A stretch of 64,000 nt of DNA from NCBI GenBank assembly GCA_964016885.1, contig OZ024748.1, positions 26,474,001 through 26,538,000 on the forward strand. The letters are read 5' to 3'. Origin of the DNA: Eledone cirrhosa (lineage: Eukaryota). Every line of letters starts with the position of its first letter. The first letter of the stretch is position 1. Position numbers and translations under genes: made by a program. The notes beneath the pieces were generated by a model. It did no database searches. It had not been told where the DNA came from and saw only the letters and a program-made list of their open reading frames with translations. Shown piece after piece: positions 1 to 64,000 of the stretch.

Positions 1-3000
1 ACAACAGCAACAACATCACAGCTTCCTTCAACAAGTGAAATCCATATAGAAACTCCTAAATCTACTTCTGAACTGCCTCATATAACTGACATTGAAACAA
101 GTACAGTGGAAAGGACAACACAAATTACAGATATTGAAACTGAACGCACAACTCAGACAGAAATTACACCACAACTAACAACATCTCCTGAAGAAACAAC
201 TCTGTCTACTCAGGTAGAGGACATCGAAAAGGTGACACCAACACAAGTTGCTAGCACAATGCATACATCACCTGAAACAACAGTTGTTTCATCTCCAGAA
301 CACACCTCTATAACACCTACAGATGAACTTACTAGTATTGAATATACAACTGAGACATCAACTGAAAAACCACTACCTATCAAGACACCTACAAGCACGG
401 CAGAAAAGATCACTGAAACTATAACAGACACAGTAGCAACAACATCACAGCTTCCTTCAACAAGTGAAATCCATATAGAAACTCCTAAATCTACTTCTGA
501 ACTGCCTTATACAACTGACATTGAAACAAGTACAGCGGAAAGGACAACACAAATTACAGATATTGAAACTGAACGCACAACTCAGACAGAAATTACACCA
601 CAACTAACAACATCTCCTGAAGAAACAACTCTGTCTACTCAGGTAGAGGACATCGTAAAGGTGACACCAACACAAGTTGCTAGCACAATGCATACATCAC
701 CTGAAACAACAGTTGTTTCATCTCCAGAACGCACCTCTATAACACCTACAGATGAACTTACTAGTATTGAATATACAACTGAGACATCAACTGAAAAACC
801 ACTACCTATCAAGACACCTACAAGCACAGCGGAAAAGATCACTGAAACTAGAACAGACACAACAGCAACAACATCACAGCTTCCTTTAAGAACAACACAA
901 GTTACAGATATTGAAACTGAGCGCACAACTCAGACAGAAATTACACCACAACAAACAACATCTCCTAAAGAAACAACACTGTCTACTCATATAACTGACA
1001 TTGAAACAAGTACAGTGGAAAGAACAACACAAATTACAGATATTGAAACTGAACGCACAACTCAGACAGAAATTACACCACAACTAACAACATCTGAAGA
1101 AACAACTCTGTCAACTCAGGTAGAGGACATCGAAAAGGTGACACCAACAACAGTTGTTTCATCTCCAGAACACACCTCTATAACACCTACAGGTGAACTT
1201 ACTAGTATTGAATATACAACTGAGACATCAACTGAAAAACCACTACCTGTCAAGACACATACAAGCACCGCAGAAAAGATCACTGAAACTAGAACAGACA
1301 CAACAGCAACAACATCACAGTTTCCTTTAACAAGTGAAATCCATATAGAAACTCATAAATCTACTTCTGAACTGCCTCATATAACTGACATTGAAACAAG
1401 TACAGTGGAAAGAACAACACAAATTACAGATATTGAAACTGAACGCACAACTCAAGCAGAAATTACACCACAACAAACAACATCTCCTGAAGAAACAACT
1501 CTGTCTGCTCAGGTAGAGGACATCGAAAAGGTGACACCAACACAAGTTGCTAGAACAATGCATACATCACCTGAAACAACAGTTGTTTCATCTCCAGAAC
1601 ACACCTCTATAACACTTACAGATGAACTTATTAGTATTGAATATACAACTGAGACATCAACTGAAAAACCACTACCTATCAAGACACCTACAAGCACAGC
1701 AGAAAAGATCACTGAAACTATAACAGACACAGCAGCAACAACATCACAGCTTCCTTCAACAAGTGAAATCCATATAGAAACTCCTAAATCTACTTCTGAA
1801 CTGCCTCATATAACTGACATTGAAACAAGTACAGTGGAAAGAACAACACAAATTACAGATATTGAAACTGAACGCACAACTCAGACAGAAATTACACCAC
1901 AACTAACAACATCTCCTGAAGAAACAACTCTGTCTACTCAGGTAGAGGACATCGAAAAGGTGACACCAACACAAGTTGCTAGCACAATGCATACATCACC
2001 TGAAACAACAGTTGTTTCATCTCCAGAACACACCTCTATAACACCTACAGATGAACTTACTAGTATTGAATATACAACTGAGACATCAACTGAAAAACCA
2101 CTACCTATAAAGACACCTACAAGCACAGCAGAAAAGATCACTGAAACTAGAACAGACACAACAGCAACGACATCACAGCTTCCTTTAACAACTGAAATCC
2201 ATATAGAAACTCCTAAATCTACTTCTGAACTGCCTCATATAACTGACATTGAAACAAGTACAGTGGAAAGAACAACACAAATTACAGATATTGAAACTGA
2301 ACGCACAACTCAGACAGAAATTACACCACAACTAACAACATCTCCTGAAGAAACAACTCTGTCTACTCAGGTAGAGGACATCGAAAGGGTGACACCAACA
2401 CAAGTTGCTAGCACAATGCATACATCACCTGAAACAACAGTTGTTTCATCTCCAGAACACACCTCTATAACACCTACAGATGAACTTACTAGTATTGAAT
2501 ATACAACTGAGACATCAACTGAAAAACCACTACCTATGACAACAAGTACAAGCACAGCAGAAAAGATCACTGAAACTAGAACAGACACAACAGCAACAAC
2601 ATCACAGCTTCCTTCAACAAGTGAAATCCATATAGAAACTCCTAAATCTACTTCTGAACTGCCTCATATAACTGACATTGAAACAAGTACAGTGGAAAGA
2701 ACAACACAAGTTACAGATATTGAAACTGAGCGCACAACTCAGACAGAAATTACACCACAACACACAACATCTCCTGAAGAAACAACACTGTCTACTCAGG
2801 TAGAGGACATCGTAAAGGTGACAGCAACACAAGTTGCTAGCACAATGCATACATCACCTGAAACGACAGTTGTTTCATCTCCTGAACACACCTCTATGAC
2901 ACCTACAGATGAACATACTATTATTGAATATAGAACTGAGACATCAACTGAAAAACCACTACCTATAAAGACACCTACAAGCACAGCTGAAAAGATCACT

Positions 3001-6000
3001 GAAACTATAACAGACATAACAGCAACAACATCACAGCTTCCTTCAACAAGTGAAATCCATATAGAAACTCCTAAATCTACTTCTGAACTGCCTCATATAA
3101 CTGACATTGAAACAAGTACAGTGGAAAGAACAACACACGTTACAGATATTGAAACTGAACGCACAACTCAGACAGAAATTACACCACAACTAACAACATC
3201 TCCTGAAGAAACAACTCTGTCTACTCAGGTAGAGGACATCGAAAAGGTGACACCAACACAAGTTGCTAGCACAATGCATACATCACCTGAAAGAACAGTT
3301 GTTTCATCTCCTGAACACACTTCTATAACACCTACAGATGAACTCACTATTAAAGAATACATAACTGAGACATCAACAGAAAAATCACTACCTATGACAA
3401 CACCTACACGCACAGCAGAAAAGATCACTGAAACTAGAACAGACACAGCAGCAACAACATCACAGCTTCCTTCAACAAGTGAAATCCATATAGAAACTCA
3501 TAAATCTACTTCTGAACTGCCTCATATAACTGACATTGAAAAAAGTACAGTGGAAAGAACAACACAAGTTACAAATATTGAAACTAAGCGCACAACTCAG
3601 ACAGAAATTACACCACAACAAACAACATCTCCTGAAGAAACAACGCTGTCTACTCAGGTAGAGGACATCGTAAAGGTGACACCAACACAAGTTGCTAGCA
3701 CAATGCATACATCACCTGAAACAACAGTTGTTTCATCTCCTGAACACACCTCTATAACACCTACAGATGAACTTACTAGTATTGAATATACAACTGAGAC
3801 ATCAACTGAAAAACCACTACCTATCAAGACACATACAAGCACAGCAGAAAAGATCACTGAAACTAGAACAGACACAACAGCAACAACATCACAGCTTCCT
3901 TCAACAAGTGAAATCCATATAGAAACTCCTAAATCTACTTCTGAACTGCCTCATATAACTGACATTGAAACAAGTACAGTGGAAAGAACAACACAAATTA
4001 CAGATATTGAGACTGAACGCACAACTCAGACAGAAAGTACACCACAACTAACAACATCTCCTGAAGAAACAACTCTGTCTACTCAGGTAGAGGACATCGA
4101 AAGGGTGACACCAACACAAGTTGCTAGCACAATGCATACATCACCTGAAACAAAAGTTGTTTCATCTTCTGAACACACCTCTATAACACCTACAGATGAA
4201 CTTACTAGTATTGAATATAGAACTGAGACATCAACTGAAAAATCACTACCTACGATAACACCTACAAGCACAGCAGAAAAGATCACTGAAAATATAACAG
4301 ACACAACAGCAACAACGTCACAGCTTCCTTCAACAAGTGAAATCCATATAGAAACTCCTAAATCTACTTCTGAACTGCCTCATATAACTGACATTGAAAC
4401 AAGTACAGTGGAAAGAACAACACAAGTTACAGATATTGAAACTGAGCGCACAACTCAGACAGAAATTACACCACAACAAACAACATCTGAAGAAACAACA
4501 CTGTCTACTCAGGTAGAGGACATCGTAAAGGTGACACCAACACAAGTTGCTAGCACAATGCATACATCACCTGAAACAACAGTTGTTTCGTCTCCAGAAC
4601 ACACCTCTATAACACCTACACATGAACTTACTAGTATTGAATATACAACTGAGACATCAACTGAAAAACCACTACCTATAAAGACACCTACAAGCACAGC
4701 TGAAAAGATCACTGAAACTATAACAGACACAACAGCAACAACATCAAAGCTTCCTTCAACAAGTGAAACCCATATAGAAACTCCTAAATCTACTTCTGAA
4801 CTGCCTCATATAACTTACATTGAAACAAGTACAGTGGAAAGAACAACACAAATTACAGATATTGAAACTGAACGCACAACTCAGACAGAAATTACACCAC
4901 AACTAACAACATCTCCTGAAGAAACAAGTCTGTCTACTCAGGTAGAGGACATCGAAAGGGTGCCACCAACACAAGTTGCTAGCACAATGCATACATCACC
5001 TGAAACAACAGTTGTTTCATCTCCAGAACACACCTCTATAACACCTACAGATGAACTTACTAGTATTGAATATAGAACTGAGACATCAACTGAAAAATCA
5101 CTACCTACGATAACACCTACAAGCACAGCAGAAAAGATCACTGAAACTATAACAGACACAACAGCAACAACATCACAGCTTCCTTCAACAAGTGAAATCC
5201 ATATAGAAACTCCTAAATCTACTTCTGAACTGCCTCATATAACTGACATTGAAACAAGTACAGTGGAAAGAACAACACAAATTACAGATATTGAAACTGA
5301 ACGCAGAACTCAGACAGAAATTACACCACAACTAACAACATCTCCTGAAGAAGCAACTCTGTCTACTCAGGTAGAGGACATCGAAAGGGTGACACCAACA
5401 CAAGTTGCTAGCACAATGCATACATCACCTGAAACAACAGTTGTTTCATCTCCAGAACACACCTCTATAACACCTACAGATGAACTTACTAGTATTGAAT
5501 ATATAACTGAGACATCAACTGAAAAACCACTACCTATCAAGACACCTACAAGCACAGCAGAAAAGATCACTGAACCTAGAACAGACACAACAGCAACAAC
5601 ATCACAGCTTCCTTCAACAAGTGAAATCCATATAGAAACTCCTAAATCTACTTCTGAACTGCCTCATATAACTGACATTGAAACAAGTACAGTGGAAAGA
5701 ACAACACAAATTACAGATATTGAAACTGAACGCACAACTCAGACAGAAATTACACCACAACTAACAACATCTCCTGAAGAAACAACTCTGTCTACTCAGG
5801 TAGAGGACATCGAAAGGGTGACACCAACACAAGTTGCTAGCACAATGCATACATCACCTGAAACAACAGTTGTTTCATCTCCAGAAATCACCTCTATAAC
5901 ACCTACAGATGAACTTACTAGTATTGAATATACAACTGTGACATCAACTGAAAAACCACTACCTATAAAGACACCTACAAGCACAGCTGAAAAGATCACT

Positions 6001-9000
6001 GAAACTAGAACAGACACAACAGCAACAACATCACAGCTTCCTTCAGCAAGTGAAATCCATATAGAAACTCCTAAATCTACTTCTGAACTGCCTCATATAA
6101 CAGACATTGAAACAAGTACAATGGAAAGAACAACACAAATTACAGATATTGAAACGGAACGCACAACTCAGACAGAAATTACACCACAACTAACAACATC
6201 TCCTGAAGAAACAACTCTGTCTACTCAGGTAGAGGACATCAAAAGGGTGACACCAACACAAGTTGCTAGCACAATGCATACATCACCTGAAACAACAGTT
6301 GTTTCATCTCCAGAACACACCTCTATAACACCTACAGATGAACTTACTAGTATTGAATATACAACTGAGACATCAACTGAAAAACCACTACCTATAAAGA
6401 CACCTACAAGCACAGCTGAAAAGATCACTGAAACTATAACAGACACAACATCAACAACAACACAGCTTCCTTCAACAAGTGAAATCCATATAGAAACTCC
6501 TAAATCTACTTCTGAACTGCCTCATATAACTGACATTGAAACAAGTACAGTGGAAAGAACAACACAAATTACAGATATTGAAACTGAACGCACAACTCAG
6601 ACAGAAATTACACCACAACTAACAACATCTCCTGAAGAAACAACTCTGTCTACTCAGGTAGAGGACATCGAAAGGGTGACACCAACACAAGTTGCTAGCA
6701 CAATGCATACATCACCTGAAACAACAGTTGTTTCATCTCCAGAACACACCTCTATAACACCTACAGATGAACTTACTAGTATTGAATATACAACTGAGAC
6801 ATCAACTGAAAAACCACTACCTATAAAGACACCTACAAGCACAGCAGAAAAGATCACTGAAACTATAACAGACACAACAGCAACAACATCACAGCTTCCT
6901 TCAACAAGTGAAATCCATATAGAAACTCCTAAATCTACTTCTGAACTGCCTCATATAACTGACATTGAAACAAGTACAGTGGAAAGAACAACACAAATTA
7001 CAGATATTGAAACTGAACGCACAACTCAGACAGAAATTACACCACAACTAACAACATCTCCTGAAGAAACAACTCTGTCTACTCAGGTAGAGGACATCGA
7101 AAAGGTGACACCAACACAAGTTGCTAGCACAATGCATACATCACCTGAAACAACAGTTGTTTCATCTCCAGAACACACCTCTATAACACCTACAGATGAA
7201 CTTACTAGTATTGAATATACAACTGAGACATCAACTGAAAAACCACTACCTATAAAGACACCTACAAGCACAGCTGAAAAGATCACTGAAACTATAACAG
7301 ACACAACAGCAACAACATCACAGCTTCCTTCAACAAGTGAAATCCATATAGAAACTCCTAAATCTACTTCTGAACTGCCTCATATAACTGACGTTGAAAC
7401 AAGTACGATGGAAAGAACAACACAAATTACAGATATTGAAACTGAACGCACAACTCAGACAGAAATTACACCACAACTAACAACATCTCCTGAAGAAACA
7501 ACTCTGTCTACTCAGGTAGAGGACATCGAAAAGGTGACACCAACACGAGTTGCTAGCACAATGCATACATCACCTGAAACAACAGTTGTTTCATCTCCTG
7601 AGCACACCTCTATAACATCTACAGATGAACTTACTAGTATTGAATATAGAACTGAGACATCAACTGAAAAATCACTACCTACGATAACACCTACAAGCAC
7701 AGCAGAAAAGATCACTGAAACTATAACAGACACAACAGCAACAACATCACAGCTTCCTTCAACAAGTGAAATCCATATAGAAACTCCTAAATCTACTTCT
7801 GAACTGCCTCATATAACTGACATTGAAACAAGTACAGTGGAAAGGACAACACAAATTACAGATATTGAAACTGAACGCACAACTCAGACAGAAATTACAC
7901 CACAACTAACAACATCTCCTGAAGAAACAACTCTGTCTACTCAGGTAGAGGACATCGTAAAGGTGACACCAACACAAGTTGCTAGCACAATGCATACATC
8001 ACCTGAAACAACAGTTGTTTCGTCTCCAGAACACACCTCTATAACACCTACAGATGAACTTACTAGTATTGAATATACAACTGAGACATCAACTGAAAAA
8101 CCACTACCTATCAAGACACCTACAAGCACGGCAGAAAAGATCACTGAAACTATAACAGACACAGTAGCAACAACATCACAGCTTCCTTCAACAAGTGAAA
8201 TCCATATAGAAACTCCTAAATCTACTTCTGAACTGCCTTATACAACTGACATTGAAACAAGTACAGCGGAAAGGACAACACAAATTACAGATATTGAAAC
8301 TGAACGCACAACTCAGACAGAAATTACACCACAACTAACAACATCTCCTGAAGAAACAACTCTGTCTACTCAGGTAGAGGACATCGAAAGGGTGACACCA
8401 ACACAAGTTGCTAGCACAATGCATACATCACCTGAAACAACAGTTGTTTCATCTCCAGAACACACCTCTATAACACCTACAGATGAACTTACTAGTATTG
8501 AATATACAACTGAGACATCAACTGAAAAACCACTACCTATAAAGACACCTACAAGCACAGCAGAAAAGATCACTGAAACTATAACAGACACAACAGCAAC
8601 AACATCACAGCTTCCTTCAACAAGTGAAATCCATATAGAAACTCCTAAATCTACTTCTGAACTGCCTCATATAACTGACATTGAAACAAGTACAGTGGAA
8701 AGAACAACACAAATTACAGATATTGAAACTGAACGCACAACTCAGACAGAAATTACACCACAACTAACAACATCTCCTGAAGAAACAACTCTGTCTACTC
8801 AGGTAGAGGACATCGAAAAGGTGACACCAACACAAGTTGCTAGCACAATGCATACATCACCTGAAACAACAGTTGTTTCATCTCCAGAACACACCTCTAT
8901 AACACCTACAGATGAACTTACTAGTATTGAATATACAACTGAGACATCAACTGAAAAACCACTACCTATAAAGACACCTACAAGCACAGCTGAAAAGATC

Positions 9001-12000
9001 ACTGAAACTATAACAGACACAACAGCAACAACATCACAGCTTCCTTCAACAAGTGAAATCCATATAGAAACTCCTAAATCTACTTCTGAACTGCCTCATA
9101 TAACTGACGTTGAAACAAGTACGATGGAAAGAACAACACAAATTACAGATATTGAAACTGAACGCACAACTCAGACAGAAATTACACCACAACTAACAAC
9201 ATCTCCTGAAGAAACAACTCTGTCTACTCAGGTAGAGGACATCGAAAAGGTGACACCAACACGAGTTGCTAGCACAATGCATACATCACCTGAAACAACA
9301 GTTGTTTCATCTCCTGAGCACACCTCTATAACATCTACAGATGAACTTACTAGTATTGAATATAGAACTGAGACATCAACTGAAAAATCACTACCTACGA
9401 TAACACCTACAAGCACAGCAGAAAAGATCACTGAAACTATAACAGACACAACAGCAACAACATCACAGCTTCCTTCAACAAGTGAAATCCATATAGAAAC
9501 TCCTAAATCTACTTCTGAACTGCCTCATATAACTGACATTGAAACAAGTACAGTGGAAAGGACAACACAAATTACAGATATTGAAACTGAACGCACAACT
9601 CAGACAGAAATTACACCACAACTAACAACATCTCCTGAAGAAACAACTCTGTCTACTCAGGTAGAGGACATCGTAAAGGTGACACCAACACAAGTTGCTA
9701 GCACAATGCATACATCACCTGAAACAACAGTTGTTTCGTCTCCAGAACACACCTCTATAACACCTACAGATGAACTTACTAGTATTGAATATACAACTGA
9801 GACATCAACTGAAAAACCACTACCTATCAAGACACCTACAAGCACGGCAGAAAAGATCACTGAAACTATAACAGACACAGTAGCAACAACATCACAGCTT
9901 CCTTCAACAAGTGAAATCCATATAGAAACTCCTAAATCTACTTCTGAACTGCCTTATACAACTGACATTGAAACAAGTACAGCGGAAAGGACAACACAAA
10001 TTACAGATATTGAAACTGAACGCACAACTCAGACAGAAATTACACCACAACTAACAACATCTCCTGAAGAAACAACTCTGTCTACTCAGGTAGAGGACAT
10101 CGAAAGGGTGACACCAACACAAGTTGCTAGCACAATGCATACATCACCTGAAACAACAGTTGTTTCATCTCCAGAACACACCTCTATAACACCTACAGAT
10201 GAACTTACTAGTATTGAATATACAACTGAGACATCAACTGAAAAACCACTACCTATGACAACAAGTACAAGCACAGCAGAAAAGATCACTGAAACTAGAA
10301 CAGACACAACAGCAACAACATCACAGCTTCCTTCAACAAGTGAAATCCATATAGAAACTCCTAAATCTACTTCTGAACTGCCTCATATAACTGACATTGA
10401 AACAAGTACAGTGGAAAGAACAACACAAGTTACAGATATTGAAACTGAGCGCACAACTCAGACAGAAATTACACCACAACACACAACATCTCCTGAAGAA
10501 ACAACACTGTCTACTCAGGTAGAGGACATCGTAAAGGTGACAGCAACACAAGTTGCTAGCACAATGCATACATCACCTGAAACGACAGTTGTTTCATCTC
10601 CTGAACACACCTCTATGACACCTACAGATGAACATACTATTATTGAATATAGAACTGAGACATCAACTGAAAAACCACTACCTATAAAGACACCTACAAG
10701 CACAGCTGAAAAGATCACTGAAACTATAACAGACATAACAGCAACAACATCACAGCTTCCTTCAACAAGTGAAATCCATATAGAAACTCCTAAATCTACT
10801 TCTGAACTGCCTCATATAACTGACATTGAAACAAGTACAGTGGAAAGAACAACACACGTTACAGATATTGAAACTGAACGCACAACTCAGACAGAAATTA
10901 CACCACAACTAACAACATCTCCTGAAGAAACAACTCTGTCTACTCAGGTAGAGGACATCGAAAAGGTGACACCAACACAAGTTGCTAGCACAATGCATAC
11001 ATCACCTGAAAGAACAGTTGTTTCATCTCCTGAACACACTTCTATAACACCTACAGATGAACTCACTATTAAAGAATACATAACTGAGACATCAACAGAA
11101 AAATCACTACCTATGACAACACCTACACGCACAGCAGAAAAGATCACTGAAACTAGAACAGACACAGCAGCAACAACATCACAGCTTCCTTCAACAAGTG
11201 AAATCCATATAGAAACTCCTAAATCTACTTCTGAACTGCCTCATATAACTGACATTGAAACAAGTACAGTGGAAAGAACAACACAAATTACAGATATTGA
11301 GACTGAACGCACAACTCAGACAGAAAGTACACCACAACTAACAACATCTCCTGAAGAAACAACTCTGTCTACTCAGGTAGAGGACATCGAAAGGGTGACA
11401 CCAACACAAGTTGCTAGCACAATGCATACATCACCTGAAACAACAGTTGTTTCATCTCCAGAACACACCTCTATAACACCTACAGATGAACTTACTAGTA
11501 TTGAATATACAACTGAGACATCAACTGAAAAACCACTACCTATAAAGACACCTACAAGCACAGCTGAAAAGATCACTGAAACTATAACAGACACAACAGC
11601 AACAACATCACAGCTTCCTTCAACAAGTGAAATCCATATAGAAACTCCTAAATCTACTTCTGAACTGCCTCATATAACTGACGTTGAAACAAGTACGATG
11701 GAAAGAACAACACAAATTACAGATATTGAAACTGAACGCACAACTCAGACAGAAATTACACCACAACTAACAACATCTCCTGAAGAAACAACTCTGTCTA
11801 CTCAGGTAGAGGACATCGAAAAGGTGACACCAACACGAGTTGCTAGCACAATGCATACATCACCTGAAACAACAGTTGTTTCATCTCCTGAACACACCTC
11901 TATAACATCTACAGATGAACTTACTAGTATTGAATATAGAACTGAGACATCAACTGAAAAATCACTACCTACGATAACACCTACAAGCACAGCAGAAAAG

Positions 12001-51000: not shown

Positions 51001-54000
51001 GAGACATCAACTGAAAAACCACTACCTATGACAACACCTACAAGCACAGCTGAAAAGATCACTGAAACTATAACAGACACAACAGCAACAACATCACAGC
51101 TTCCTTCAACAAGTGAAATCCATATAGAAACTCCTAAATCTACTTCTGAACTGCCTCATATAACTGACATTGAAACAAGTACAGTGGAAAGAACAACACA
51201 AATTACAGATATTGAAACTGAACGCACAACTCAGACAGAAATTACACCACAACTAACAACATCTCCTGTAGAAACAACTCTGTCTACTCAGGTAGAGGAC
51301 ATCGAAAAGGTGACACCAACACAAGTTGCTAGCACAATGCATACAACAACTGAAACAATAGTTGTTTCATCTCCAGAACACACCTCTATACCACCTACAG
51401 ATGAACTTACTATTAAAGAATACACAACTGAGACATCAACTGAAAAATCACTACCTATGACAACACCTACAAGCACAGCAGAAAAGATCACTGAAACTAG
51501 AACAGACACAACAGCAACAACATCACAGCTTCCTTCAATAAGTGAAATCCATATAGAAACTCCTAAATCTACTTCTGAACTGCCTCATATAACTGACATT
51601 GAAACAAGTACAGTGGAAAGAACAACACAAATTACAGATATTGAAACTGAGCGCACAACTCAGACAGAACTTACACCACAACTAACAACATCTCCTAAAG
51701 AAACCACTCTGTCTACTCAGGTAGAGGACATCGAAAGGGTGACAGCAACAAAAGTTGCTAGCACAATACATACATCACCTGAAACAACAGTTGTTTCATC
51801 TCCTGAACACACTTCTATAACAACTACAGATGAACTTACTAGTATTGAATATACAACTGAGACATCAACTGAAAAACCACTACCTATAAAGACACCTACA
51901 AGCAAAGCAGAAAAGATCACTGAAACTAGAACAGACACAACAGCAACAACATCACAGCTTACTTCAACAAGTGAAATCCATATAGAAACTCCTAAATCTA
52001 CTTCTGAACTGCCTCATATAACTGACATTGAAACAAGTACAGTGGAAAGAACAACACTAATTACAGATATTGAAACTGAACGCACAACTCACACAGAAAT
52101 TACACCACAACTAACAACATCTCCTGAAGAAACAACTCTGTCTACTCAGGTAGAGGACATCGAAAAGGTGACACCAACACAAGTTGCTAGCACAATGCAT
52201 ACATCACCTGAAACAACAGTTGTTTCATCTCCTGAACACACCTCTATAACAACTATAGATGAACTTACTAGTATTGAATATACAACTGAGACATCAACTG
52301 AAAAACCACTACCTATCAAGACACCTACAAGCACAGCAGAAAAGATCACTGAAACTAGAACAGACACAACAGCAACAACATCACAGCTTCCTTCAACAAG
52401 TGAAATCCATATAGAAACTCATAAATCTACTTCTGAACTGCCTCATATAACTGACATTGAAACAAGTACAGTGGGAAGAACAACACAAGTTACAGATATT
52501 GAAACTAAACGCACAACTCAGACAGAAATTACACCACAACTAACAACATCTCCTGAAGAAACAACTGTGTCTACTCAGGTAGAGGACATCGAAAAGGTGA
52601 CAGCAACACAAGTCTCTAGCACAATGCATACATCACCTGAAACAACGGTTGTTTCATCTCCTGAACACACTTCTATAACACCTACAGATGAACTCTCTAT
52701 TAAAGAATACACAACTGAGACATCAACTGAAAAATCACTACCTATAAAGACACCTACAAGCACAGCTGAAAAGATCACTGAAACGATAACAGACACAACA
52801 GCAACAACATCACAGCTTCCTTCAACAAGTGAAATCCATATAGAAACTCCTAAATCTACTTCTGAACTGCCTCATATAACTGACATTGAAACAAGTACAG
52901 TGGGAAGAACAACACACATTACAGATATTGAAACTAAACGCACAAAACAGACAGAAATTACACCACAACAAACAACATCTCCTGAAGAAACAACTCTGTC
53001 TACTCAAGTAGAGGACATCGAAAAGGTGACACCAACACAAGTTGCTAGCACAATGCATACATCACCTGAAACAACAGTTGTTTCATCTCCTGAACACACC
53101 TCTATAACACCTACAGATGAACTCACTAGTATTGAATATACAACTGAGACATCAACTGAAAAATCACTACCTATGACAACACCTACAAGCACAGCAGAAA
53201 AGATCACAGAAACTAGAACAGACACAACAGCAACAACATCACAGCTTCCTTCAACAAGTGAAATCCATATAGAAACTCCTAAAACTACTTCTGAACTGCC
53301 TCATATAACTGACACTGAAACAAGTACATTGGAAAGAACAACACAAGTTACAGATATTGAAACTGAGCGCACAACTCAGACAGAAATTACACCACAACAA
53401 ACAACATCTCCTGAAGAAACAACTCTGTCTACACAGGTAGAGGACATCGTAAAGGTGACACCAACACAAGTTGCTAGCACAATGCATACATCACCTGAAA
53501 CAACAGTTGTTTCATCTCCTGAACACACCTCTATAACACCTGCAGATGAACTCACTAGTATTGAATATACAACTGAGACATCAACTGAAAAATCACTACC
53601 TATGACAACACCTACAAGCACAGCAGAAAAGATCACTGAAACTAGAACAGACACAACAGCAACAACATCACAGCTTCCTTCAACAAGTGAAATCCATATA
53701 GAAACTCCTAAATCTACTTCTGAACTGCCTCATATAACTGACATTGAAACAGGTACAGTGGAAAAAACAACACAAATTACAGATATTGAAACTGAACGCA
53801 CAACTCAGACAGAAATTACACCACAACGAACAACATCTCCTGAAGAAACAACACTGTCTACTCAGGTAGAGGACATCGTAAAGGTGACACCAACACAAGT
53901 TGCTAGCACAATGCATGCATCACCTGAAACTACAGTTGTTTCATCTCCTGAACACACCTCTATAACACCTACAGATGAACTTACTAGTATTGAATATACA

Positions 54001-57000
54001 ACTGAGACATCAACTGAAAAACCACTACCTATCAAGAAACCTACAAGCACAGCAGAAAAGATCACTGAAACTAGAACAGACACAACAGCAACATCACAGC
54101 TTCCTTCAACAAGTGAAATCCATATAGAAACTCCTAAATCTACTTCTGAACTCCCTCATATAACTGACATTGAAACAAGTACAGTGGAAAGAACAACACA
54201 AATTACAGATATTGAAACTGAACGCACAACTGAGACACAACTTACACCACAACAAACAACATCTCCTGAAGAAACCACTCTGTCTACTCAGGTAGAGGAC
54301 ATCGAAATGGTGACAGCAACACAAGTTGCTAGCACAATGCATACATCACCTGAAACAACAGTCGTTTCATCTCCTGAACACACCTCTATAACACCTACAG
54401 ATCAACTCACTAATATTGAATATACAACTGAGACATCAACTGAAAAACCACTACCTATAAAGACACCTACAAGCACATCAGAAAAGATCACTGAAACTAG
54501 AACAGACACAACAGCAACAACATCACAGCTTCCTTCAACAAGTGAAATCGATATAGAAACTCGTAAATCTACTTCTGAACTGCCTCATATAACTGATATT
54601 GAAACAAGTACAGTGGAAAGAACAACACTAATTACAGATATTGAAACTGAACGCACAACTCAGACAGAAATTACACCACAACTAACAACATCTCCTGAAG
54701 AAACAACTCTGTCTACTCAGGTAGAGGACATCGAAAAGGTGACAACAACACAAGTTGCTAGCACAATGCATACATCACCTGAAACAACAGTTGTTTCATC
54801 TGCTGAACACACCTCTATAACACCTACAGATGAACTTACTAGTATTGAATATACAACTGAGACATCAACTGAAAAACCACTACCTATCAAGTCACCTACA
54901 AGCACAGCAGAAAAGATCACTGAAACTAGAACAGACACAACAGCAACAACATCACAGCTTCCTTCAACAAGTGAAATCCATATAGAGACTCTTAAATCCA
55001 CTTCTGAAATGCCTCATATAACTGACATTGAAACAAGTACAGTGGAAAGAACAACACAAGTTACAGATATTGAAACTGAACGCACAACTCAGACAGAAAT
55101 TACACCACAACTAACAACATCTCCTCAAGAAACAACTCTGTCTACTCAGGTAGAGGACATCGAAAAGGTGACACAAATACAAGTTGCTAGCACAATGCAT
55201 ACATCACCTGCAACAACAGTTGTTTCATCTCCTGAACACACCTCTATAACACCTACAGATGAACTCACTAGTATTGAATATACAACTGAGACATCAACTG
55301 AAAAATCACTACCTATGACAACACCTACAAGCACAGCAGAAAAGATCACTGAAACTAGAACAGACACAACAGCAACAACATCACAGCTTCCTTCAACAAG
55401 TGAAATCCATATAGAAACTCCTAAATCAGCTTCTAGAATGCCTCATATAACTGACATTGAAACAAGTACAGTGGAAAGAACAACACAAATTATAGATATT
55501 GAAACTGAACGCACGACTCAGACAGAAATTACACCACAACTAACAACATCTCCTGAAGAAACAACTCTGTCTACTCAGGTAGAGGACATCGAAAAGGTGA
55601 CACCAACACAAGTTGCTAGCACAATGCATACAACAACTGAAACAATAGTTGTTTCATCTCCAGAACACACCTCTATACCACCTACAGATGAACTTACTAG
55701 TATTGAATATACAACTGAGACATCAACTGAAAAATCACTACCTATGACAACACCTACAAGCACAGCAGAAAAGATCACTGAAACTAGAACAGACACAACA
55801 GCAACAACATCACAGCTTCCTTCAATAAGTGAAATCCATATAGAAACTCCTAAATCTACTTCTGAACTGCCTCATATAACTGACATTGAAACAAGTACAG
55901 TGGAAAGAACAACACAAATTACAGATATTGAAACTGAGCGCACAACTCATACAGAACTTACACCACAACTAACAACATCTCCTAAAGAAACCACTCTGTC
56001 TACTCAGGTAGAGGACATCGAAAGGGTGACAGCAACAAAAGTTGCTAGCACAATACATACATCACCTGAAACAACAGTTGTTTCATCTCCTGAACACACT
56101 TCTATAACACCTACAGATGAACTCACTATTAAAGAACACACAACTGAGACATCAACTGAAAAATCACTACCTATGACAACACCTACAAGCACAGCAGAAA
56201 AGATCACTGAAACTAGAACAGACACAACAGCAACAACATCACAGCTTCCTTCAACAAGTGAAATCCATATAGAAACTCCTAATTCAGCTTCTGAACTGCC
56301 TCATATAACTGACATTGAAACAAGTACAGTGGAAAGAACAACACAAATTACAGATATTGAAACTGAACGCACAACTCAGACAGAAATTACACCACAACTA
56401 ACAACATCTCCTGTAGAAACAACTCTGTCTACTCAGGTAGAGGACATCGAAAAGGTGACACCAACACAAGTTGCTAGCACAATGCATACAACAACTGAAA
56501 GAACAGTTGTTTCATCTCCAGAACACACCTCTATACCACCTACAGATGAACTTACTAGTATTGAATATACAACTGAGACATCAACTGAAAAACCACTACC
56601 TATAAAGACACCTACAAGCACAGCTGAAAAGATCACTGAAACTATAACAGACACAACAGCAACAACATCACAGCTTCCTTCAACAAGTGAAATCCATATA
56701 GAAACTCCTAAATCTACTTCTGAACTGCCTCATATAAGTGACATTGAAACAAGTACAGTGGAAAGAACAACACAAATTACAGATATTGAAACTGAGCGCA
56801 CAACTCAGACAGAACTTACACCACAACAAACAACATCTCCTAAAGAAACCACTCTGTCTACTCAGGTAGAGGACATCGAAAGGGTGACACCAACACAAGT
56901 TGCTAGCACAATACATACATCACCTGAAACAACAGTTGTTTCATCTCCAGAACACACCTCTATAACACCTACAGATGAACTTACTAGTATTGAATATACA

Positions 57001-60000
57001 ACTGAGACATCAACTGAAAAACCACTGCCTATAAAGACACCTACAAGCACAGCTGAAAAGATCACTGAAACTATAACAGACACAACAGCAACAACATCAC
57101 AGCTTCCTTCAACAAGTGAAATCCATATAGAAACTCCTAAATCAGCTTCTGAACTGCCTCATATAACTGACATTGAAACAAGTACAGTGGAAAGAACAAC
57201 ACAAATTACAGATATTGAAACTGAACGCACAACTCAGACAGAAATTACACCGCAACTAACAACATCTCCTGAAGAAACAACTCTGTCTACTCATGTAGAG
57301 GACATCGAAAAGGTGACAACAACAGAAGTTGCTAGTACAATGCATACATCACCTGAAACAACAGTTGTTTCATCTCCAGAACACACCTCTATAACACCTA
57401 CAGATGAACTTACTAGTATTGAATATACAACTGAGACATCAACTGAAAAACCACTACCTATCAAGACACCTACAAGCACAGCTGAAAAGATCACTGAAAC
57501 TAGAACAGACACAACAGCAACAACATCACAGCTTCCTTCAACAAGTGAAATCCATAGAGAAACTCCTAAATCTACTTCTGAACTGCCTCATATAACTGAC
57601 ATTGAAACAAGTACAGTGGAAAGAACAACACAAATGACAGATATTGAAACTGAGCGCACAACTCAGACAGAACTTACACCACAACAAACAACATCTCCTG
57701 AAGAAACAACACTGTCTACTCAGGTAGAGGACATCGGAAAGGTGACACCAACACAAGTTGCTAGCACAATGCATACACCACCTGATACAACAGTTGTTTC
57801 ATCTCCTGAACTCACCTCTATAACACCTACAGATGAACTCACTATTAAAGAATACACAACTGAGACATCAACTGAAAAATCACTACCTATGACAACACCT
57901 ACAAGCACAGTAGAAAAGATCACTGAAACTAGAACAGACACAACAGCAACAACATCACAGCTTCGTTCAACAAGTGAAATCCATATAGAAACTCCTAAAT
58001 CTACTTCTGAACTGCCTCATATAACTGACATTGAAACAAGTACAGTGGAAAGAACAACACAAATTACAGATATTGAAACAGAACACACAACTCAGACAGA
58101 AAGTACACCACAACTAACAACATCTCCTGAAGAAACAACTCTGTCTACTCAGGTAGAGGACATCGAAAAGGTGACACCAACACAAGTTGCTAGTACAATG
58201 CATACATCACCTGAAACAACAGTTGTTTCATCTCCTGAACACACATCTATAACACCTACAGATGAACTGATTAGTATTGAATATACATCTGATACATCAA
58301 CTGAAAAATCACTACCTATGACAACACCTACAAGCTCATCAGAAAAGATCACTGAAACTAGAACAGACACAACAGCAACAACATCACAGCTTCCTTCAAC
58401 AAGTGAAATCCATATAGAAACTCCTAAATCTACTTCTGAACTGCCTCATATAACTGACATTGAAACAAGTACAGTGGAAAGAACAACACAAATGACAGAT
58501 ATTGAAACAGAACACACAACTCAGACAGAAAGTACACCACAACTAACAACATCTCCTGAAGAAACAACTCTGTCTACTCAGGTAGAGGACATCGAAAAGG
58601 TGACACCAACACAAGTTGCTAGTACAATGCATACATCACCTGAAACAACAGTTGTTTCATCTCCTGAACACACCTCTATAACACCTACAGATGAACTTAC
58701 TAGTATAGAATATACAACTGAGACATCAACTGAAAAACCACTACCTATAAAGACACCTACAAGCACAGCAGAAAAGATCACTGAAACGATAACAGACACA
58801 ACAGCAATAACACCACAGCTTCCTTCAACAAGTGAAATCGATATAGAAACTCCTAAATCTACTTCTGAACTGCCTCATATAACTGACATTGAAACAAGTA
58901 CAGTGGAAAGAACAACACAAATTACAGATATTGAAACAGAACACACAACTCAGACAGAAAGTACACCACAACTAACAACATCTCCTGAAGAAACAACTCT
59001 GTCTACTCAGGTAGAGGACATCGAAAAGGTGACACCAACACAAGTTGCTACTACAATGCATACATCACCTGAAACAACAGTTGTTTCATCTCCTGAACAC
59101 ACATCTATAACACCTACAGATGAACTGATTATTATAGAATATACATCTGATACATCAACTGAAAAATCACTACCTATGACAACACCTACAAGCTCATCAG
59201 AAAAGATCACTGAAACTAGAACAGACACAACAGCAACAACATCACAGCTTCCTTCAACAAGTGAAATCCATATAGAAACTCCTAAATCTACTTCTGAACT
59301 GCCTCATATAACTGACATTGAAACAAGTACAGTGGAAAGAATGACACAAATGACAGATATTGAAACTGAACGCACAACTCAGACAGAAATTACACCACAA
59401 CTAACAACATCTCCTGAAGAAACAACACTGTCTACTCAGGTAGAGGACATCGAAAAGGTGACACCAACACAAGTTGCTAGCACAATGCATACATCACCTG
59501 AAACAACAGTTGTTTCATCTCCTGAACAAACCTCTATAACACCTACAGATGAACTTACTAGTATTGAATATACAACTGAGACATCAACTGAAAAGCCACT
59601 ACCTATCAAAACACCTACAAGCACAGCAGAAAAGATCACTGAAACTAGAACAGACACAACAGCAACAACATCACAGCTTCCTTCAACAAGTGAAATCCAT
59701 ATAGAAACTCATAAATCTACTTCTGAACTGCCTCATATAACTGACATTGAAACAAGTACAGTGGAAAGAACAACACAAATTACAGATATTGAAACAGAAC
59801 ACACAACTCAGACAGAAAGTACACCACAACTAACAACATCTCCTGAAGAAACAACTCTGTCTACTCAGGTAGAGGACATCGAAAAGGTGACACCAACACA
59901 AGTTGCTAGTACAATGCATACATCACCTGAAACAACAGTTGTTTCATCTCCTGAACACACATCTATAACACCTACAGATGAACTGATTAGTATAGAATAT

Positions 60001-60901
60001 ACATCTGATACATCAACTGAAAAATCACTACCTATGACAACACCTACAAGCACAGCAGAAAAGATCACTGAAACTAGAACAGACACAACAGCAACAACAT
60101 CACAGCTTCCTTCAACAAGTGAAATCCATATAGAAACTCCTAAATCTACTTCTGAACTGCCTCATATAACTGACATTGAAACAAGTACAGTGGAAAGAAC
60201 AACACAAATTACAGATATTGAAACTGAACGCTCAACTCAGACAGAAATTACACCACAATTAACAAAAACTACCAAACAAACAACTCTGTCTTTTCAGCCT
60301 GTGGATTTCAAAACCAGCAATAATGTATCAGGAACACGTGAGAAATGGGAGATGTACACATCTGAAGTTATGTCACCAGCTGCAAGTACTGCCGACTTTG
60401 TCATCAAATTTTTAACTATAACAACACCAACAACACCAACAACAACGCCAACAACAACGCCAACAACAACACCAACAACAACAACACCAACAACAACACC
60501 AACAACAACACCAACAACAACACCAACAACAACACCAACAACAACCCCAACAACAACACCAACAACAACAACACCAACAACAACGCCAACAACAACACCA
60601 ACAACAACACCAACAACAACGCCAACAACAACACCAACAACAACACCAACAACACCAACAACAACACCAACAACAACCCCAACAACAACACCAACAACAA
60701 CACCAACAACAACAACACCAACAACAACGCCAACAACAACACCAACAACAACACCAACAACAACACCAACAACAACGCCAACAACAACACCAACAACAAC
60801 GCCAACAACAACAACACCACCAACAACAAGGCCAACAACAACGCCAACAACAACAACAACGCCAACAACACCAACGCCAACAGCACCAACAACAACAACA
60901 C

Positions 60902-60933
<32 letters not shown>

Positions 60934-63900
60934 CCAACAACAACAACGCCAACAACACCAACAACAACACCAACACCAACGCCAACACCATCAACACCAA
61001 CAACACCAACAACAACACCGCCAACAACACCAACACCACCAACAACAACAACAACAACACCAACAGCAACACCCTCAGCGACACCCACACCACCAACAAC
61101 AACGTCAACAACAACGTCAATAACAACACCACCAACAACACCACCAACAACAACACCAACAACAAAATCCACAACACCAACAATAACAACAATGTCAACA
61201 ACACCACCACCAATTACAATTACACCTAAAACAACGAATCGAAAAACAACAGCAGTAACAGCAAAAACAATAACACCAACAACAACAACTACACCAACAA
61301 CAACATCAACAACTGCAACACAGCTTCCTTCAACAGCTCTATTACTAACTGAAACTACAGATGCAAGTTCTAGTTCTCTTCCACAAAGTGCCATTTACCG
61401 TAGCACATTGCAAAGTACAAAAAAAATTAAAATTATAGAAACGGAACGCACAACTGATGCAGTAATTACAACTCAACTAACAACATCAACTGCACAAACA
61501 AGTCTGACAACTCAGGTAGAAGACATTGAAAAATTGACACCAACACCAGTTTTTACCACAATGCATACACCAACTGAAACAACAGTGGTTTCATCTCCTG
61601 AACACACCTCTATAACACCTACAGAGGAACTTACTAGTATAGAATATACATCTGAGACATCAACTGAAAAATCACTACCTATGACAACACCTACAAGCAC
61701 AGCAGAAAAGATCACTGAAACTATTACAGACACAACAGCAACAACATCACAGCTCCCTTCAACAAGTGAAATCCATATAGAAACTCCTAAATCTACTTCT
61801 CAACTTCCTTATACAACTGACATTGAAACAAGAACAGTGGAAAGAACAACACAAATTACAGATATTGAAACTGAACGTTCAACTCAGACAGAAATTACAC
61901 CACAACTAACAACATCGCCTGAAGAAACAACAATGTCTACTCAGGTAGAGGACATCGAAAAGGTGACACCAACACAAGTTGCTAGCACAAAGCAAACATC
62001 AACTGAAACAACAGTTGTTTCTTCTACTGAACAAACCTCTATAACACCTACAGATGAACTCACTAGTATTGAATATACTACTGAGACAGCAACTGAAAAA
62101 CCACTACCTATCAAGAGACCTACAAGCACAGCAGAAAAGATCACTGAAACTAGAACAGACACAACAGCAACAACATCACAGCTTCCTTCAACAAGTGAAA
62201 TCCATATAGAAACTCCTAAATCTACTTCTGAACTGCCTCATACAACTGACATTGAAACAAGTACAGTGGAAAGAACAACACAAATTACAGATATTGAAAC
62301 TGAGCGCTCAACTCGGACAGAAATTACATCACAACTAACAAGTTCTCCTGAAGAAACAACTCTGTCTACTCAGGTAGAGGACATTGAAAAGGTGACACCA
62401 ACACCAGTTGCTAGCACAAAGCATACATCACCTGAAACAACAGTAGTTTCATCTCCTGAACACACCTCTATAACACCTACAGATGAACTCACTCGTATTG
62501 AATATACTATTGAGACATCAACTAAAAAATCACTACCTATGACAACACCTACCAGCACAGCAGAAAAGATCACTGAAACTATTACAGACACAACAGCAAC
62601 AACACCACAGCTTTCTCCAACAAGCGAAATCCATATAGAAACTCCAAAATCTACTTCTCAACTTCCTTATACAACTGACATTGAAACAAGTACAGTGGGA
62701 AGAACAACACAAATTACAGATATTGAAACTGAGCGCACAACTGAGACAGAACGTACACCACAACTAACAACATCTCCTGAAGAAACAACTCTGTCTACTG
62801 AGGTGGAGGACATCGAAAAGGTGACACCAACACAAGTTGCTAGCACAATGCATACATCACCTAAAACAACAGTTGTTTCATCTACTGAACACACCTCTCT
62901 AACATCATCTACAGAGGAACTCACTAGTATAAAATATACTCCTGAGACATCAACTGAAAAGTCACTACCTATCAAGACACCTACAAGCACAGCAGAAAAG
63001 ATCACTGAAACTATAACAGACACAACAGCAACAACATCACAGCTTCCTTCAACAAGTGAAATCCATATAGAAACTCCTAAATCTACTTCTGAACTTCCTT
63101 ATACAACTGACATTGAAACAAGTACAGTGGAAAGAACAACACAAATTACAGATATTGAAACTGAGCACACAACTCAGACAGAAATTACACCACAACTAAC
63201 AACATCTCCTGAAGAAACAACACTGTCTACTCAGGTAGAGGACATCGAAAAGGTGACACCAACACAAGTTGCTAACACAATACATACATCCCCTGAAACA
63301 ACAGTTGTTTCATCTCCTGAACACACCTCTATAACACCTACAGATGAACTTACTAGTATTGAATATACAACTGAGACATCAACTAAAAAACCACTACCTA
63401 TCAAGACACCTACAAGCACAGCTGAAATGATCACTGAAACTATTACAGACACAACAGCAACAACATCACAGCTTCCTTCAACAAGTGAAATCCATATAGA
63501 AACTCCAAAATCTACTTCTCAAATTCCTTATACAACTGACATTGAAACAAGGACAGTGGAAAGAACAACACAAATTACAGATATTGAAACTGAGCACACA
63601 ACTCAGACAGAAATTACACCACAACTAACAACATCTCCTGAAGAAACAACACTGTCTACACAGGTACAGGACATCGAAAAGGTGACACAAACACAAGTTG
63701 CTACCACAAAGCATACGTCACCTGAAATAACAGTAGTTTCATCTCCAGAACACACCTCTATAACACCTACAGATGAACTTACTATTATTGAATATAAAAC
63801 TGAGACATCAACTGAAAAACCACTACCTATCAAGACAGCTACAAGCACAGCAGAAAAGATCACTGAAACTAGAACAGACACAACAGCAACAACATTACAG

Positions 63901-63999
63901 CTTCCTTCAACAAGTGAAATCCATATAGAAACTCCTAAATCTACTTCTGAACTGCCTCATATAAGTGACATTGAAACAAGTACAGTGGAAAGAACAACA
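1..63999 (+). CDS. Partial giant mucin-like (PTS-domain) glycoprotein, at least 21,333 codons, open at both window edges
   Basis: Frame +1 translates to a repeated 143-aa peptide (first unit by hand count: 43 Thr, 16 Ser, 12 Pro, 20 Glu, 5 Asp, no Cys/Gly/Asn/Phe/Trp). A fixed landmark in each unit (210, 639, 1116, 1509 ... 60294, 61512 ... 63231) always falls on a coordinate divisible by 3, so frame is kept. Almost every unit has an in-frame ATG, yet the ORF track reports no frame +1 ORF, as expected if the frame contains no stop. I translated the non-repeat parts of 60241-61560 by hand and found them open. Confidence 0.88.
6560..10250 (+). repeat. Higher-order tandem duplication, period 1716 bp (4 monomers)
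   Basis: Diagnostic variants (gacgttgaa...acgatg, acacgagtt, acagtagca, ccttatacaact) recur at +1716. Units 6654/7083/7512/7941 match 8370/8799/9228/9657. Confidence 0.9.
8825..13790 (+). repeat. Higher-order duplication, period 2574 bp (6 monomers)
   Basis: Variant units at 9228/9657/10086/10515/10944 recur at 11802/12231/12660/13089/13518. Confidence 0.88.
24400..28755 (+). repeat. Higher-order tandem duplication, period 2145 bp (5 monomers)
   Basis: Variants gagtggaaa (24622/26767), gaggcatca (25261/27406), cagcgtcct and gaattc (26233/28378) recur at +2145. Confidence 0.92.
28640..33855 (+). repeat. Higher-order tandem duplication, period 2574 bp (6 monomers)
   Basis: Units 28980/29409/29838/30267/30696 recur at 31554/31983/32412/32841/33270 with shared private variants (gttactagc, tctagacag, actggaaca, cctcagata). 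Confidence 0.92.
36720..44150 (+). repeat. Higher-order duplication, period 3432 bp (8 monomers), with a nested 1287-bp (3-monomer) re-duplication
   Basis: Units 36702/37131/37560/37989/38418 recur at 40134/40563/40992/41421/41850. The triplet 40992-41850 recurs at 42279-43137, then the series resumes (43566 matches 38847). Confidence 0.88.
58070..60040 (+). repeat. Alternating dimer higher-order repeat, period 858 bp
   Basis: The variant unit carrying cacacatct and tatacatctgatacatca occurs at 58149, 59007 and 59865, alternating with near-consensus units. Confidence 0.8.
60262..60420 (+). other. Unique in-frame linker interrupting the array (TKTTKQTTLSFQPVDFKTSNNVSGTREKWEMYTSEVMSPAASTADFVIKFLTI)
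   Basis: The repeat consensus decays from about 60262 and is lost after 60297. The segment is stop-free in frame +1 and contains Phe, Trp, Gly and Asn, which are absent from the repeat consensus. An N-V-S sequon lies at 60322-60330. Confidence 0.8.
60421..61320 (+). repeat. Low-complexity coding tract (CCA ACA ACA ACA)n encoding (PTTT)n, about 300 codons
   Basis: Almost pure ACA/ACG/CCA/CCC codons from 60421 to about 60830. It becomes progressively degenerate (Ser, Ala, Ile, Lys) up to 61320. Confidence 0.95.
61321..61512 (+). repeat. Highly diverged half-copy of the 429-bp unit
   Basis: QLPSTALLLTETTDASSSSLPQSAIYRSTLQSTKKIKIIETERTTDAVITTQLTTSTAQTSLTT has the same 192-nt length as consensus QLPST...TLST. 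It retains QLPST, IETERTT and QLTTS. Confidence 0.85.
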
Positions 64000-64000
64000 C
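61513..64000 (+). repeat. Second segment of the 429-bp array (about 5.8 more diverged copies, runs off the window)
   Basis: Landmarks at 61512, 61941, 62370, 62799, 63231 (+3 nt) and 63660. Each unit carries more private substitutions than units in 1-45 kb. Confidence 0.97.

Follow-up and report, generated by a model that had tools for sequence, protein, structure and literature searches.

The window analysed here is a stretch of 64,000 nucleotides (nt) from the octopod Eledone cirrhosa (contig OZ024748.1, G000:C8:26474001-26538000), and it is filled by tandem copies of a 429-nt unit, encoding 143 amino acids (aa), which we place within the middle exon of a probable VWA-domain gene. Frame +1 is open from end to end, with 0 stops in 21,333 codons, against 469-2,486 stops in each of the five other frames. 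Tandem Repeats Finder (TRF) gives 140.5 + 6.0 copies of the unit, in agreement with the “about 147” units counted in an earlier reading of these letters without database searches (the sequence-only reading). The translated frame is 30% Thr, 13% Glu, 11% Ser, 8% Ile and 8% Pro, and the unit matches no recognised Pfam family (best E 0.054).

We analysed the flanks for 300 kb upstream and 100 kb downstream of the window; coordinates outside 1-64000 are contig positions minus 26,474,000. The stop-free frame extends from -219977 to 79725 (99,900 codons, with no N inside), opening just ahead of a pyrimidine tract and AG at -219866 and closing just past a strong donor at 79705. Within the giant exon predicted from these borders (Table 1), a degenerate repeat is followed by a unique linker, then by the main array, in which the 143-aa unit occurs about 640 times, and then by a unique end. 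A VWA exon lies 2.1 kb upstream of the giant exon and a last coding exon 2.1 kb downstream. The extent of the frame (299.6 kb) and its place in the middle of a probable VWA gene go beyond what the window alone could show.

Table 1. Features of the locus, with positions relative to the first letter of the window
Feature	Position	Assembly coordinates	Strand	Basis or detail
VWA exon, 552 nt, phase 1-1	-222485..-221934	G000:C8:26251515-26252066	+	Pfam VWA E 4e-33
Predicted giant exon, 299,571 nt (99,857 codons), phase 1 to phase 1	-219865..79705	G000:C8:26254135-26553705	+	acceptor and donor
First part of giant exon, ~6,700 aa of degenerate Thr/Pro/Gly repeat, 27-nt period	-219865 to ~-199500		+	
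Main array	~-198194..78540		+	637 anchors; 553 regular units (425 distinct), mean 2.4% from consensus
Inner slice of predicted giant coding exon	1..64000		+	open frame in window
140.5 copies of the 429-nt (143-aa) Thr/Glu/Ser/Ile/Pro unit, part of main array	1..60291		+	
Four-indel cluster -81, +132, -3, -36	887..1150		+	-81 at 887, -3 at 1094, -36 at 1146
Second copy of four-indel cluster, then +9 duplication at 18911	18482..18920		+	alignment to consensus; -81 at 18482, -3 at 18689, -36 at 18741
In-frame interruption, net +789 nt	60270..61500		+	short unique stretch, ~900 nt of Thr/Pro simple repeat, diverged unit
6 further 429-nt copies, more diverged; array continues beyond window	61405..64000		+	+3 at 62903
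Unique Ser/Thr-rich exon end, ~390 aa	~78540-79705		+	
Last coding exon, 192-aa divergent VWA-fold domain, then stop and 3′ untranslated region	81818-82398	G000:C8:26555818-26556398	+	

The domain encoded upstream carries what we take to be the VWA metal-site residues (DxSxS..T..D, read by eye), and matches P0013 at 86% and the first VWA of the paralog P0020 at 43%. The last domain is without the DxSxS motif and was not recognised by Pfam (best E 0.32), but models as a degenerate VWA fold: its structure model has a predicted local distance difference test score (pLDDT) of 80.8, and the top fold matches are collagen VI, integrin I domains, mussel PTMP1 and VWF A domains. Joined, the three exons give a predicted product of at least 100,233 aa and 10.9 MDa with one terminal stop, comprising 42,477 Ser+Thr (42.4%; 50.6% with Pro, that is, Pro/Thr/Ser or PTS), a net charge of -10,239 and 7 Cys. 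The spacer between the two VWA domains has 42% Ser+Thr, a net charge of about -10,000 and 5 Cys. No membrane helix was found in the product, whose highest 19-residue hydropathy (1.3) lies inside a VWA fold.

The 3′ end of this gene model is joined in a contig from sequencing run X4 (88 Mb of contigs, their kind not on record, which we read as RNA from this spliced contig). Contig 9 of that run (2,244 nt) joins L012:5703 to 7816, which is the predicted intron, allowing for a 2-nt overlap; it links the 3′ end of the giant exon to the last exon and extends past the stop. The run has almost no depth in two unique bins of the intron; at L012:5095, in the unique exon end, contig and assembly disagree by a single base, a synonymous change in a Pro codon. 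We read it as a transcript spliced at the 3′ junction.

The same exon plan recurs in this genome, where 11 places match the last exon, the present locus included, and each is preceded on its own strand by a match to the first VWA. Among the ten paralogs, the two VWA domains stand 2.4-15.7 kb apart; 7/10 have an exon-like, Thr-rich or Thr/Pro-rich short frame between them (read by eye), and signal exons were found in 4/10. Seven family members form a cluster at C1:280.42-280.75 Mb, two lie at C15:8.09-8.12 Mb and one on C37. There are also about 25 near-identical VWA matches some 3 kb apart at C107:77684-152060, a tandem array of VWA exons, and about ten similar matches, on both strands, over 0.9 Mb at C4:319.99-320.89 Mb.

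Compact members of the family in Octopus and Argonauta are mostly 475-707 aa long, most with hydrophobic leaders, and the two-VWA proteins of Mytilus are more distant. Proteins with the order signal, VWA, Thr linker, VWA include XP_029634555.2, XP_036358028.1 and XP_014771412.1 (automatically named collagen alpha-1(XXVIII)/(XII)-like or uncharacterized); the Eledone gene resembles these octopod proteins in its first VWA (40-43% identical) and its last domain (27%, E 5e-23), and its exon order and phase-1 borders are the same in its own paralogs (borders by eye). A canonical VWA, a Thr-rich linker and a divergent C-terminal VWA occur here in the exon order of that family. The likely orthologs are XP_014785251.1 (O. 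bimaculoides LOC106879988, 862 aa) and CAI9735081.1 (O. vulgaris “Mucin-5AC-like”, 885 aa), whose last domains are 79% and 76% identical to the one here; the unique exon end is 60% identical to the same two models (P0001, 211/353; P0002, 222/373), and these also share a related repeat (44% over 204 aa) and the same junction, K-G then last domain. Unlike the Eledone gene, both models start inside repeats, without a first VWA, and they look like 3′ fragments.

Whether selection keeps the frame open was asked of the units themselves. Substitutions were tested in 137 regular units of the window (108 distinct; 7/144 of irregular length were left out) and in 553 regular units of the whole array (83/636 left out). 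Each distinct allele was counted once, allele counts being safer than tree-based ones. The window units hold 333 distinct variant alleles of 1,287 possible: 246/920 missense, 87/322 synonymous and 0/45 stop-making, so that missense and synonymous alleles are observed at the same rate and stops not at all. Matching by mutation type gives 12.2-15.3 expected stop-making alleles (analytic P ~1e-8), and none of 20,000 permutations gave zero (the minimum was 3); matching by sequence context gives 13-16 (P 1e-4.6 to 1e-6.3). In the five other frames 20-46% of the stop-making changes are observed (11/50 to 31/67).

Similarly, the whole array contains no actual stop codon against about 21-26 expected; two alleles that would turn the consensus codon into a stop were each observed a single time, in both instances alongside a further change to that codon which leaves no stop. 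The youngest variation shows the same deficit: among 161 alleles private to one unit there are 0 stops against 13.4 expected (P 1e-5.3). Alleles private to blocks include 0 stops in each of six blocks, where 7.9, 4.2, 3.5, 1.3, 4.1 and 7.5 were expected (28.5 in sum, any block alone being a weak test). Tree-based expectations (26 stops in the window, 58 overall) were set aside because gene conversion inflates them. The ratio of non-synonymous to synonymous change (omega) on the tree is 0.82 (0.67-1.00) in the window and 0.86 (0.75-0.98) in the whole array, and 0.91-0.97 on the tree tips.

From the 0/45 stops, the equal missense and synonymous rates and the omega of 0.82, it follows that in this array stops are removed while amino-acid changes are nearly free. 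The sequence-only reading had seen no nonsense change among the diverging units and had argued from this for selection on translatability rather than on exact sequence; this is now borne out, zero stops (against 12-16 expected) not being a chance result in the allele tests, and omega lying near one. Its further proposal, that composition is also selected, finds only hints: changes to Cys are few (2 against 6.2 expected, z -2.4), as are changes to Gly (z -2.0), and neither deficit is significant across 20 tests.

The same reading had rested as much on indels, all of them multiples of three (3n) in length. Every indel that it listed was recovered by an alignment of DNA to the unit consensus that is blind to frame, save the +789 interruption, which was confirmed by length and not by alignment (the segment 60115-61761 is 1,647 nt, or two units + 789). 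They are fewer than they look. The -3 at 1094, 4487, 14780 and 18689 is one identical deletion; the +132 against one unit, at 986 and 18581, is equally a -297 against two; the other single indels in the window are a -3 at 54089 and the +3 near its end. The -81 and +132 parts of the four-indel cluster have 7 occurrences across the whole array, which are likely copies of one event. The window thus holds 8 distinct indel types, not 13-14 independent events. In the whole array 14/14 indel rows are multiples of three, and no compensating gaps are hidden in the regular units (0/553). However, between 62% and 85% of the 3-6-nt microhomology pairs in the unit are spaced by a multiple of three, so that 8/8 types has a P of ~1.5e-4 under a null of 1/3 and of ~0.06 under a null of 0.7. 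Because the microhomologies favour 3n, the pattern, real as it is, is weak evidence of selection; this half of the argument is much weaker than had been held, and carries little weight alone.

We propose that the window lies within a stop-free frame of 299.6 kb, that this frame is probably a single coding exon in an octopod gene of VWA-spacer-VWA type, and that the likely product is secreted and mucin-like, with at least 100,233 aa if read whole; we give this reading as a whole a probability of about 0.72. Its parts differ in strength. That the array is a coding exon of a real gene we hold to be nearly certain, as the sequence-only reading had inferred in setting a protein-coding array against a neutral satellite, in view of the stop depletion, the phase-matched VWA exons, the octopus homologs and the spliced contig. 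That a single 300-kb exon is transcribed, stays whole in splicing and is translated over its full length, giving a secreted chain of over 100,000 aa, we favour by a small margin over the contrary.

Such a chain, if read end to end, would have a mass of ~11 MDa before sugars and a length of tens of micrometres. The spacer is predicted, from its composition alone, to be O-glycosylated, and would be extended; at 0.35 nm per residue it could reach up to ~35 micrometres, holding the N-terminal VWA with its metal site apart from the degenerate C-terminal VWA. Its role in mucus or matrix may therefore be to tether or cross-link over very long distances. The gene may derive from an ordinary octopus protein of 500 aa by a roughly 200-fold inflation of its linker, and the array would grow and homogenise by unequal exchange, both of single units and of blocks of 4-30 units. 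This is suggested by the block offsets within the array (4, 6, 8, 14, 29 and 30 units) and by its more diverged ends. Most amino-acid changes would be without consequence, whereas a stop anywhere would cost the C-terminal domain, or expose the transcript to nonsense-mediated decay, and would be removed by selection. If the mutation rate is taken as 1e-8 per base, with stops produced by 3.5% of point changes, new null alleles would appear in about 1 per 10,000 gametes, a load that would be bearable.

Several points weigh against this proposal. The transcript support is one contig of one run among the 4 runs used, not on record as RNA, and the 5′ junction of the giant exon is a prediction only. 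In X4 the repeat words have a depth of 58 and the unique end 11, a ratio of ~5-fold, far below the ~330-fold of the assembled copies; 3′ bias or short isoforms would both give such depth, and contigs do not discriminate between them. No convincing signal-peptide exon was found in the 78 kb upstream (a 200-N gap included), where both phase 1 and phase 0 were scanned, and the leaders of paralogs compared, for the short phase-0 signal exon and the small exon expected ahead of the VWA exon in this family; weak candidates only were obtained (e.g. -272290..-272216, and a 10-nt exon at -223267..-223258), and for this reason secretion is inferred from the paralogs. Gene conversion inflates tree-based counts, as said; run X1, which we use below for copy number, may be the assembled sample itself, and contig depth is a rough guide that gives no copy number. 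Finally, each unit has two phase-0 AG/GT motifs, at consensus positions 181 and 199, the first intact in 489/553 units, which could allow in-frame internal splicing, weak-scoring (1.8) as they are.

The last point bears on the alternative that survives best, namely that the array is coding but is divided over shorter mucins, by in-frame splicing at AG/GT or by internal starts. We consider this unlikely, while taking it seriously: the two motifs per unit, the low depth of repeats in X4, the predicted 5′ junction and the hours that translation of a 300-kb mRNA would need all fit it. However, the motifs score 1.8-2.2 against 7.4 for the true donor and vary among units, the spacer of the paralogs resembles one ordinary exon, and libraries selected by poly(A) lose coverage far from the 3′ end, which would account for the depth. 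Because stops are absent in every block, and from private alleles too, every part of the array appears to be translated, and each region read often enough for selection to act, which does not imply that one ribosome reads it all.

Much less probable is that the assembler inflated or cleaned the array, so that its length or its open frame is an artefact. This is a single assembly with many near-identical blocks. Against an artefact, exact repeats in the exon reach at most 5.3 kb and near-identical blocks ~11 kb, while every word of 10 kb is unique, as are 99.8% of those of 5 kb; the 161 single-unit alleles survive, which shows that the assembler did not merge the units into a consensus; the repeat contig of X1 is 352x as deep as unique sequence (4292/12.2), where the assembly has those words ~330 times; and assemblers are blind to frame, whereas only one of the six frames lacks stops. 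A little less credible again is the idea that the array grew from a short coding spacer too recently to have decayed, and is open for that reason alone, though mostly no longer under selection. An identical twin for 39% of the regular units, a median nearest neighbour differing at 1 base and an omega near 1 would suit it, but the youngest alleles, those of single units, largely refute it by their lack of stops; units also differ on average by 3.6-5.3%, and a second organism (run X5) has a similar repeat at roughly 285x its unique depth (a further run, X6, had too low a cover to use). Neutral satellite DNA with a chance open frame has next to no claim, and was rejected: head-to-tail 429-nt units with higher-order blocks resemble one, and 3n indels can arise here without selection, but the depletion of stops in one frame shows a constraint on reading frame, and the phase-matched VWA exons, octopod homologs and spliced contig speak against it as well.

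Some other features of the locus were observed. The exon contains 7 AATAAA words, 5 in the unique linker (-199115..-198476) and 2 in the unique 3′ end (79011 and 79500), with none in the repeats, which could mean possible internal poly(A) sites or avoidance within the array. Opposite the Thr/Pro/Gly region (-219792..-199156, minus strand) are two long antisense open frames of 2,832 and 4,046 aa, Val/Gly-rich, a likely by-product of codon use. Upstream of the first VWA exon lies a TA-rich simple repeat of ~20 kb (-264000..-241600) which includes the 200-N gap (-250685..-250486), and the N-terminal 145 aa of P0017, having no match upstream here, were set aside as a likely gene-model error. By eye, some frames resemble pieces of reverse transcriptase and a piece of Tc1/mariner-type transposase (150920-152833, minus; -253567..-252263, minus; -285763..-285020, plus).

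If made whole, the predicted product of more than 100,000 aa would be the longest protein that we found reported in the literature searched; we found there no published report of this gene or of any exon of such length, subscription journals lying mostly outside that coverage. Were the proposal true, exon and protein would be the longest on record, the protein over twice the length of PKZILLA-1 (see below), and the upper limit for one exon and one polypeptide would shift. The definition of a 300-kb exon by the spliceosome, the export of its mRNA and the completion of 100,000 codons by ribosomes would become testable, with the ten small paralogs in the same genome as built-in controls. The array is also a natural experiment, with hundreds of units in which amino-acid change is nearly free and stops are not. 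As the current Octopus gene models appear to contain no more than fragments of this gene, others like it are probably hidden as “satellite”.

Considering known systems, the product likely behaves as a mucin while belonging to the octopod VWA-linker-VWA family, and its PTS-rich tandem repeat in one large exon is mucin-like. Gel-forming mucins (MUC2, MUC5AC, MUC5B) have Cys-rich VWD, CysD and cystine-knot domains; with 7 Cys in 100,233 aa and VWA ends (in the three-exon model, from the first VWA on) the product is not of their kind. Nor is it a transmembrane mucin such as MUC4, MUC12 or MUC16, having no C-terminal membrane helix, or a collagen of types VI, XII or XXVIII, having no Gly-X-Y region and only 617 Gly among the 99,900 residues of the stop-free frame. 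The VWA fold is shared with matrilins, collagen VI and the mussel byssus protein PTMP1, the last two among the top fold matches, and a role as two-VWA cross-linker of matrix belongs to this group; none of these is known to have a giant spacer. The octopod VWA-linker-VWA proteins themselves are 468-707 aa long with linkers of ~50-300 aa, whereas here the linker exon has 99,857 codons. A skin-mucus proteome of octopus includes mucins and proteins with VWFA domains, and its main text does not name the O. bimaculoides locus (PMC11431876). Like MUC4, MUC12 and MUC16, the gene has one large, open, tandem-repeat Pro/Thr/Ser exon, and human MUC12, of up to 23,080 aa, is described as holding the largest human exon (PMC13345508); the exon here is over four times the longest MUC12, and differs in its VWA ends and lack of a membrane helix. 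PKZILLA-1 (45,212 aa in 17 exons, with peptide support; 10.1101/2024.01.29.577497) and the predicted Omnitrophota proteins of up to 85,804 aa (10.1101/2023.11.21.568195) are similar single-chain giants that routine annotation had missed. Unlike those chains of folded domains, the product predicted here from DNA would be longer than both, and 99.6% of it would be a low-complexity spacer.

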